NCBI GenBank assembly: GCA_951406725.2
Contig: OX597828.1
Coordinates: 65,224,001-65,288,000 of the forward strand
DNA length: 64,000 bases
Direction: 5' to 3'
Origin: Octopus vulgaris
Taxonomy: Eukaryota
Shown here: positions 14,966 through 50,346 of the stretch, piece by piece
How the letters are laid out: every line of letters begins with the position of its first letter
Numbering within the stretch: the stretch's first letter is position 1
Program-made: the position numbers and the translations under genes
Notes under the pieces: model-generated
Told to the model about the DNA's origin: nothing
The model's database searches: none
Seen by the model: the letters and a program-made list of their open reading frames with translations, nothing else

Positions 14966-15181
14966 GGAGGCGCAATGGCCCAGTGGTTAGGGCAGCGGAC
15001 TTGCGGTCGGAGGATCGCGGTTTCGATTCCCAGACCGGGCGTTGTGTGTGTTTATTGAGCGAAAACACCTAAAAGCTCCACGAGGCTCCGGCAGGGGATG
15101 GTGGTGATCCCTGCTGTACTCTTTCACCACTCTAAAGGCGGTGCTCCAGCATGGCCGCAGTCAAATGACTGAAACAAGTAC
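14966..15181 (+). mobile_element. tRNA-derived SINE family A head/body fused to a family B 3' tail
   Basis: GGAGGCGCAATGGCCCAGTGGTTAG (A box) and GGTTTCGATTCCC (B box), then CTAAAGGCGGTGCTCCAGCATGGCCGCAGTCAAATGACTGAAAC. Confidence 0.9.
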
Positions 15182-45049: not shown

Positions 45050-45060
45050 CAGCAGCAGCA

Positions 45061-45420
45061 GAGGCACAATGGCTCAGTGGTTAGGGCAGCAGACTCGCGG
45101 TCTGAGGATCGCGGTTTCGATTCCCAGACCGGGCGTTGTGTGTGTTTATTGAGCGAAAACACCTAAAGCTCCACGAGGCTCCGGCATGGGGTGGTAGCGA
45201 CCCCTGTTGTACTCTTTCGCTCCAACTTTCTCTCACTCTTTCTTCCTGTTTTTTGTCCGCGACTTCCAACGCAACCGCTGAGCCTGTATGCGCACTCATC
45301 CATCCGTCGATGCTATCGCTGTCGAGGGTTGACCTGCTTTCTCTTCGGCGGGTCTTACGAATAGCAAGGGACCACGTTTCGGACTTCTCTCACACTGGGA
45401 CGAAGACCGCTTCGCTCAAC
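45061..45420 (+). mobile_element. SINE family A with tail type 3
   Basis: Family A head/body to ~45250, then an unrelated ~170 bp segment ending CAACAACAGCAGC. Confidence 0.85.
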
Positions 45421-45488: not shown

Positions 45489-45697
45489 CGGTGGTGGTGG
45501 TGATGGTGAAGCAACGGAAGACTATGATGCCCGTAGCTATTTCAGAATCAGAGTTGGAATGATATCTATTTCCATTTGTTTAAGAAGCCATATTTACACA
45601 GAGTTTGATGCACTTTAGTGTGTAGCCAACATTGCCATTTGTACTTTAATGTGCGATCTACCTGGTCATTTATGATTTAGCGCGCAATCTAACACTA

Positions 45698-45854
45698 CAT
45701 TATTTACATTATTTACACTTGACAGATATTTGTCCTCATCTTGTTTGTTGTTAACACGTTTCAGCTGATATACCCTCCAAGCCTTCATCAGGTGCCTTGG
45801 GGAAATTCCGAACCTGGGTTCTCGTTCCTAAGGTATTTTTCTATGTTGTTGTTA

Positions 45855-45921
<67 letters not shown>

Positions 45922-45998
45922 GCCCACGGGCATATGGCGTAATGGTTAAGAGCGCGGGCTACTAACCCCGAAATTCCGAGTTCAACCACAGGCAGTGA

Positions 45999-46064
<66 letters not shown>

Positions 46065-46247
46065 TGATGATATCGAAAAATACTTTAGGAATGAGAACCC
46101 AGATTCGAAATTTCCCCAAGACACCTGATGAAGGCTGGAGGATATATCAGCCGAAACATTGTCTTAACAACAAACAAGATGAGGACAAATATCAGTCAAA
46201 TGTAAATAATGTACATAATTCCTCATCTCTTAAATATAGAACTGTAT
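45698..46247 (+). mobile_element. Composite tRNA-head/(AAT)n/hammerhead element with an inverted 5' copy of its own tail
   Basis: TSD AATCTAACACTA at 45686-45697 and 46248-46259. A box TGGCGTAATGG, B-box-like GAGTTCAACC, and CTGATGA-AGGCTG..CAGCC-GAAAC at ~46125-46157. Confidence 0.8.
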
Positions 46248-46410
46248 AATCTAACACTAATCCTAACCCTAACTATAACTATAACCCTGGCCCTTGCCCT
46301 AGCCCTAACTCTAACACTAAACGCTAACCCTAAACCCTAACCCTAAGCCTTAATCCTAAACCCTAACCATAAACCCTAGCCCTATAACTAAACGTTAACC
46401 CTAACCCAAA
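46248..46410. repeat. Degenerate (TAACCC)n telomere-like array
   Basis: Multiple TAACCC, TAAACCC and TAGCCC variants. Confidence 0.85.
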
Positions 46411-46854: not shown

Positions 46855-50210
<3,356 letters not shown>

Positions 50211-50214
50211 ACAC

Positions 50215-50261
50215 CTTCCTGAAGATTTCTCTTGAATGAAACAGTACTAGTCCTGTAGAAG
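50215..50261 (+). ncRNA. Type I hammerhead-like motif
   Basis: CUUC-CUGAAGA-UUUC-UCUU-GAAU-GAAA-CAG-UACUAGUC-CUG-UA-GAAG. Confidence 0.6.
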
Positions 50262-50346
50262 CTCCTTCTATATAATAAATTAATTTTACTCTGCTATGTA
50301 TTGAGTACCTTACTTACTGTGGTTAACCCCGAATCAACCCGGGACC

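Follow-up and report, generated by a model that had tools for sequence, protein, structure and literature searches.

Structure of the element in the window

The window, the whole 64-kb stretch of Octopus vulgaris DNA that was analysed, carries at 45686..46259 a compact insertion flanked by the 12-bp direct repeat AATCTAACACTA. This repeat occurs in the window solely at 45686 and 46248 and provides the left TSD (45686..45697, the final 2 nt of which also match the end of the inverted arm) and the right TSD (46248..46259), bearing out the TSD-bounded unit proposed in the initial annotation. Inside the left TSD lies an inverted arm on the minus strand (45698..45845), a pLTR and ORF start copied from the internal (short) end and devoid of the 34-nt tail. 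It is 89% identical to the sense tail, contains a 9-nt repeat twice, and ends at 45845 instead of the previously assigned 45842; the (TTA)n that had been noted beside it is the (AAT)n spacer of this arm, which occupies 45846..45920 on the minus strand and reads (TTA)n on the forward strand. The two arms join within this spacer through short homology, and no inverted head is present.

The plus-strand arm begins with a 7-nt leader (45921..45927), which corresponds to the last 7 nt of the 3′ UTR of the autonomous element described below and is likely the template RNA's 5′ end. A 77-nt tRNA-like head follows at 45928..46004, its start having been moved from 45921 to 45928, with tRNA-Arg as the closest isotype among those tested; the A box (45935-45945) is intact, and the B box (45978-45989) has four changes relative to the family majority. 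The (AAT)n microsatellite at 46005..46071, a fixed component of the unit with a variable length, leads into the sense tail (46072..46247, formerly placed from 46075), 176 nt that comprise a 19-nt leader and the first 52 codons of a Poseidon-type ORF, with the ATG at 46091 and the reading frame open. Its last 34 nt (46214..46247) form the one-sided 'tail' extension typical of Penelope insertions, as described in the available portions of PMC8557442 and PMC2377424.

Both arms contain the CUGAUGA-stem-GAAAC motif reported in the initial annotation. In the sense tail, the motif belongs to a minimal type I hammerhead at 46120..46165 (architecture as in the available text of PMC4209133), in which stem I pairs 46120-46124 with 46161-46165, the core runs from 46125 and is followed by an extra A, stem II spans 46133-46152, stem III is loopless and 4 nt long, and the predicted cut falls after 46160. 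Both copies are damaged, as had been suspected: the sense hammerhead by G>A at 46158 and G>C at 46163, and the inverted one, whose core and stem II lie at 45758..45792 on the minus strand, by the loss of 3 nt at the cleavage triplet. The window copy is likely inactive. The predicted fold of its two arms has an energy of -292 kcal/mol. The target site (46248-46410) is the border of a degenerate CCCTAA-like tract, and the start of the TSD agrees with the continuation of the element's own ORF at 6 of 8 bases, a possible priming homology.

Family size and insertion anatomy

Across the 2.8 Gb of genome searched (227 contigs), exact matches number 11,095 for a 22-mer of the tail, 5,148 for a 20-mer of the head and 763 for a 22-mer at the ORF stop, with 0 for controls. 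Calibration by the exact-match rates in sampled copies (33/99 for the tail, 32/88 for the head and 8/28 for the ORF end) yields estimates of ~33,000 tail arms, ~14,000 heads and ~2,700 ORF ends, heads outnumbering ORF ends by about 5 to 1. At ~1.6 arms per locus, the number of insertions is roughly 20,000, itself a rough estimate. Tails differ from the family majority at 4.0% of non-CpG sites and 20% of CpG sites, and none of the sampled copies is a near-identical young one.

Tail arms end at two sites, a long end at bases about 171-176 and a short end at about 140-150, the latter immediately preceding the 34-nt segment. Among 85 outward-facing pairs, 72 combine a long with a short end, nine have two long and four have two short ends, and the long end is found on either arm. 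Piles of loose ends mark both sites in each of two raw RNA runs as well, the long end with 704 and 607 reads and the short end with 1,187 and 653. Flanks match over at least 8 nt (8-14 nt) in 36 of the 85 pairs versus 1.3% of mismatched pairs; TSDs are 77% A+T, and about half of the two-armed loci are devoid of a clear one. When loci are sampled by position (30 loci, less 5 overlaps), tails occur in both orientations in 15/25, and ORF sequence is attached in 0/25. The TSDs and frequent inverted 5′ arms of the initial annotation are supported; one-sided tails and inverted arms are Penelope hallmarks in the portions of PMC8557442 and PMC2377424 available to us.

Junctions between arms use short homologies. 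Paired arms share 16 of 325 variant sites (14/317 once the duplicate locus L049/L114 is removed), compared with 1.8% in shuffled pairs, a level that fits copying from one template as well as from two templates of one subfamily. The count of the 9-nt repeat is unequal between arms in 21 of 39 pairs. We rejected telomerase-like repeat addition at the short end, since the 9-nt repeat is also present 1-3 times in full-length copies and short arms show no clear enrichment for it. In the Anolis element PAc, according to the accessible text of PMC11167929, both strands are cut and extended and two internal start sites bound the tail; because PAc treats both strands in this way, we favour double priming over fold-back as the probable origin of the second arm. 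At L095:8125-8154, a 30-bp insertion of the tail segment alone starts exactly at the short-end site.

An autonomous Penelope element carries the same head and tail

A Poseidon RT motif pattern has 84 matches in the genome and 0 in the control; in 18 of the 30 matches examined as loci, the head lies downstream of the ORF in the same orientation. Conversely, a search with the 5′ part of the ORF returned 362 candidates, with the tail directly upstream in 27 of the 30 loci examined. The majority unit is 2,649 nt (2.65 kb) long and consists of an ORF of 835 codons (RT and GIY-YIG-like), its stop, a 29-nt UTR, the head, (AAT)n and the tail. The ATG of the majority ORF is tail base 20, and the tail is the in-frame N-terminus of the protein (first 52 codons), which led us to reject both the idea that the tail contains an intron and the idea that it forms the C-terminal end of the ORF; in the natural locus L154, residues 1-155 are in one open frame. 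Because ORF end, UTR, head, (AAT)n, tail and ORF start are contiguous in autonomous copies, the window element is the pLTR of this Penelope element and its head is native. The autonomous Penelope that the initial annotation had suggested looking for therefore exists, its ORF start being the tail, and mobilisation by Penelope machinery rather than by a LINE is supported, the tail being Penelope ORF sequence with two fixed 3′ ends. The notion of a non-autonomous chimera with a borrowed Penelope tail fails, as head and tail are both contiguous parts of the autonomous pLTR.

The partner encodes a PLE-type RT in a single ORF. Pfam RVT_1 matches its RT domain with E-values of 2.8e-10 to 7.4e-7, and a PLE profile built from 40 of 120 PLE homologues matches the RT and thumb at 1e-45 to 1e-16. 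The C-terminal nuclease-like part contains the motifs to be expected and has a weak match to the same profile (E 0.009 and 0.0002), and Pfam GIY-YIG has no match on the natural (mutated) nuclease stretches. Inspected against the Neptune-type ORFs of this genome, the majority ORF has no zinc-finger linker between RT and EN, and its EN is not N-terminal, unlike that of Naiad/Chlamys; the linker and EN-position criteria that separate Neptune/Nematis and Naiad/Chlamys are those given in the available part of PMC8557442. The pLTR bears a hammerhead and overlaps the ORF start, and partial tandems occur. Domain order and motifs suggest the Poseidon clade label. Divergence over 56 ORF segments has a median of 5.9% (range 3.2-11.6%).

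Neptune-type PLEs were considered as partners and rejected, none of 30 GIY-YIG and 15 extended loci having the tail linked to the ORF. Loci L091-L095 belong to a Neptune-type PLE family that is young and has many open frames of 781 codons; upstream of these lies a separate ORF of ~480 codons, which is unusual in a class with only one ORF. A pattern search found no hammerhead in this family. In a further group of loci (L146, L165, L141, L149, L038 and L019), the tail and ~240-270 nt of ORF are followed by a junction that leads either to the head, near position -5, or back to the tail. Junctions are common to L146 and L165 and to L141 and L149, suggesting internally deleted mini-elements or a preferred template-jump site.

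The tRNA-like head and the 5′ boundary

The family-majority head has both the A and B boxes intact and can be aligned over its full length with genuine tRNAs from the same genome (30 loci, 6 isotypes), best with tRNA-Arg (z 7.8-7.9 versus shuffles). Cloverleaf pairing is lost in the majority while the A/B boxes are retained; ARAGORN makes 0 tRNA calls in the window and 0 in 46/46 family loci, Rfam calls neither head nor hammerhead, and a phage search gives a single weak tRNA-annotated match. The proposed linkage of head and tail holds from either side: of 29 head-selected loci, 26 have an adjacent sense tail, one a displaced tail and two none, and 29 of 30 tail-selected loci contain head sequence. 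The 3′ UTR just upstream of the autonomous head consists of a degenerate copy, in inverted orientation, of the sequence that begins the head (for example, L129 minus strand 596-625), hinting that the head itself came in via a head-to-head junction. A different tRNA-like repeat, probably an ordinary SINE, has five copies in the window (45060-45420, and also at 14967, 17467, 23719 and 54754) and is flanked by (AGT)n and (AGC)n.

The short copies end sharply at the head start. In 72 head-bearing arms from 55 loci that were not head-selected, 29 end inside the head, 35 within -12 to +8, and 8 reach further up, only 2 of them beyond -20; the most frequent boundary is -7. Genome counts likewise fall 5.3-fold across the 76 nt from the head to the ORF-end motif versus 2.3-fold across the ~200 nt from tail to head. 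The same boundary is joined to non-palindromic ORF sequence in L038, L146, L165 and L019, joins that fold-back alone does not give. A weak hairpin with 5-bp arms and a 2-nt loop lies at the boundary and could stop or redirect the RT. At type 2 promoters, Pol III starts just upstream of the tRNA-type promoter, and we infer that such a start just upstream of the head best explains the sharp boundary. The head likely acts as a Pol III promoter, which would explain the ~20,000 SINE-like copies.

The unit is also poor in Pol III terminators. The 2,649-nt majority contains 0 TTTT, whereas synonymous shuffles predict 2.9 (P 0.019) and base shuffles predict 4.4 (P 0.008), in a single, post hoc test on a majority sequence. 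Genomic copies of the family have 0.47 TTTT per kb versus 3.28 in Neptune, where three RT ORFs have 8 each and one ORF1 has 2; all eight of eight distant Poseidon-like ORFs from metagenomes have 2-10. At true tRNA loci, a run of T4 or longer lies at most 30 nt downstream in 23 of 30. The absence of TTTT hints that Pol III reads the whole ORF. In its full form, the idea that this is an autonomous protein-coding Penelope transcribed by Pol III, in which a captured tRNA promoter would drive both a 270-nt SINE-like RNA and a 2.65-kb ORF RNA and TTTT would have been purged from the sense strand, is one that we hold only tentatively and regard as rather doubtful; against it, four of the five full-length-type loci with a complete upstream head (L138, L148, L158 and L162) continue into the previous unit, and only L140 stops.

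The hammerhead and the RNA reads

On paper, the tail of the family majority can be folded into a minimal type I hammerhead with a complete core, a 5-bp stem I, an extra A after A9, a stem II of 5-6 bp and a loopless ACGU stem III, an architecture that matches the one described in the accessible part of PMC4209133. The family majority shows every feature that defines the minimal type I form (core, extra base after A9, G10.1-C11.1, a stem I of 4-5 bp, a long stem II and palindromic 15.2-16.2); the two window copies do not show the complete set. Core and palindrome are kept in 50 of 169 arms, and all stems in 18. Copies lie head to head rather than in tandem, so that the two hammerheads fall on opposite strands, and stem III consequently has no partner in cis and needs a second molecule. 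Arm starts at tail bases 90-94, beside the predicted cut, number 8 of 219. Most of the starts around base 90 are junctions that short homology has formed at a palindrome; such homologies account for them, and hammerhead-cut 5′ ends were rejected as their source. Hammerhead cleavage is probably not needed for copying.

Roughly 6% of two raw RNA runs contains 10,242 and 7,609 reads on a family copy. These fall equally on both strands (the runs look unstranded), are mostly 85-95% alike, and in 70-74% of cases continue into unlike flanking sequence; this shows read-through of dispersed copies, which neither supports nor excludes short Pol III RNAs. Pile-ups of starts or ends at the head or the cleavage site are not among the peaks listed for the two runs, which at the cleavage site is a weak test because these are standard RNA-seq data. 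The A>G and T>C differences in reads were rejected as editing, the compared copy having changes of its own.

Two further repeats with hammerhead-like motifs lie in the window. A second high-copy family, with 1,926 candidates in the genome, is present at 47605-47825 and 49470-49690 (motif at 47665 and 49530), two copies that are 99% identical and form a local duplication 1,865 bp apart. Its type I hammerhead looks canonical, and related loci show circularly permuted tandem units of ~340 bp and some inverted pairs, as in a non-LTR retrozyme. The third, at 50216-50275 and also in L005 and L087, has a hammerhead-like motif with a non-canonical stem II.

Origin and amplification of the short form

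We consider it probable that the element is an ORF-less, two-armed Penelope/Poseidon terminal-repeat insertion with a native A/B-box head, (AAT)n and a minimal hammerhead, likely copied by the RT-endonuclease of that element from a short RNA that Pol III likely started at the head. On this model, Pol III would start ~7 nt upstream of the head and meet no terminator in the unit. The RT-endonuclease would nick both target strands ~8-14 nt apart, priming one cDNA at the outer end of the tail and another at the internal site. Short homologies would then link the pair of cDNAs head to head, and the link would often involve the cDNA end corresponding to the RNA 5′ end. Since any fresh copy whose head is intact would in turn act as a promoter, the short form would be amplified like a SINE. 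Much of the initial annotation survives in this account (Penelope machinery, linkage, TSDs, inverted arms, a minimal hammerhead and dead ribozymes), and the SINE chimera is dropped and the retrozyme is not supported.

The most serious competitor holds that the short copies are 5′-truncated products of a long Pol II or read-through RNA, with the head a dead passenger and the RT stopping or folding back at the hairpin. Penelope insertions are typically 5′-truncated with inverted arms (available text of PMC8557442), the D. virilis Penelope promoter is of the Inr/DPE type (PMC2377424, as far as the accessible portion goes), the hairpin coincides with the boundary, and the four loci that continue into the previous unit point the same way. 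We nevertheless judge it unlikely: the hairpin is much weaker than stem II of the hammerhead, which most arms pass (138/219 have their start within tail bases 1-10), non-palindromic sequence is joined at the boundary too, and the A/B boxes are kept in the majority though the cloverleaf pairing is lost.

Two other routes have far less in their favour. In a retrozyme or Sm-alpha-like SINE, the hammerhead would cleave a Pol III RNA, which would then be circularised and copied to give a non-autonomous family of its own, and the complete majority core, the arms that keep core and palindrome and the few starts at bases 90-94 would suit such a cycle; against this, copies are head to head with stem III unpaired in cis, the starts near base 90 are mostly homology junctions, no RNA ends pile up at the cut, and head and tail belong to an autonomous unit, making this route very improbable. 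Mobilisation of a tRNA SINE by a LINE with L1-type twin-priming inversion, for which the tRNA-like head and TSDs of 8-14 nt would speak, seems to us scarcely credible: the 3′ ends are fixed unique sequence that contains neither poly(A) nor a simple repeat, the inverted arm is a duplicate of the 3′ part and not an inversion of the 5′ part, and the tail is Penelope ORF sequence.

Relation to known elements

With tRNA-derived SINEs, the short Penelope form shares an A/B-box tRNA-like head, a ~270-nt unit and a very high copy number; it differs in having no LINE-type 3′ end, a head native to an autonomous partner and mostly palindromic insertions. Such SINEs include the octopus OK/OR1/OR2 families (Ohshima and Okada 1994). 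OR1 is ~270 bp long and tRNA-Arg-like, and the short unit may be this family and so already have a SINE name.

As far as the available texts on EN+ PLEs (PAc and D. virilis Penelope) describe them, the partner resembles these in its single ORF with an RT, a candidate C-terminal GIY-YIG-like domain and no Neptune zinc-finger linker, in a pLTR that overlaps the ORF start and carries the hammerhead there, and in its partial tandems, inverted 5′-truncated arm and AT-rich targets. The one-sided tail is 34 nt here, 34 bp in Penelope and 30-40 bp in PLEs generally, and in PAc the hammerhead lies at the ORF start and is dispensable for insertion, copying beginning inside the ORF (accessible part of PMC11167929). 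What sets the present element apart from the Penelope/Poseidon PLEs of those texts is the presence in its pLTR of a tRNA-derived A/B-box head together with a microsatellite, an excess of ORF-less pLTR copies, sharply bounded at the 5′ side, over ORF ends of ~5 to 1, and the absence of TTTT from the unit.

The closest known parallel to a terminal repeat that contains a Pol III promoter is TRIMp3 (Cassandra, Helenus and Ajax), where the promoter of a small-RNA gene lies inside the repeat; according to the portion of PMC10886601 at hand, these are non-autonomous LTR elements with PBS and PPT, whereas the repeat of the present family is part of a Penelope element that codes for protein. Non-LTR retrozymes share the type I hammerhead and a tie to PLE pLTRs (bioRxiv 10.64898/2026.07.22.740005, available text), and Schistosoma Sm-alpha pairs a Pol III promoter with a hammerhead (PMC6765202, likewise); in these excerpts, both are tandem repeats with hammerheads in cis, whereas the present family is dispersed and head to head with the Penelope tail signature intact. 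The available text of PMC13282606 and PMC8967140, which treat octopus SINE and Penelope families, contains no SINE-Penelope link. The literature searched contains no description of a tRNA-headed Penelope element; Repbase, Dfam and supplements such as the PMC13282606 repeat library may hold the family.

Implications

The origin of the inverted arm and one-sided tail of Penelope insertions is described as open in the available part of PMC8557442 and partly answered in that of PMC11167929. The ~20,000 short insertions, each with both junctions, priming ends and TSD within 300-600 bp, form a large natural record of the process, and a 270-nt template is a compact substrate for work in vitro. Two-armed copies may also form a long RNA hairpin in host transcripts, a possible editing substrate.

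A tRNA-derived promoter housed in an autonomous Penelope's terminal repeat would let a SINE-like family arise with no LINE involved, and an ORF free of terminators makes it more likely that Pol III produces an mRNA. Transcripts made by Pol III lack a cap, which counts against such transcription of the whole ORF. If Pol III does transcribe the whole ORF, the element would serve as both LINE and SINE for itself; cap-independent translation would be needed, and the hammerhead inside the ORF may act as a switch.
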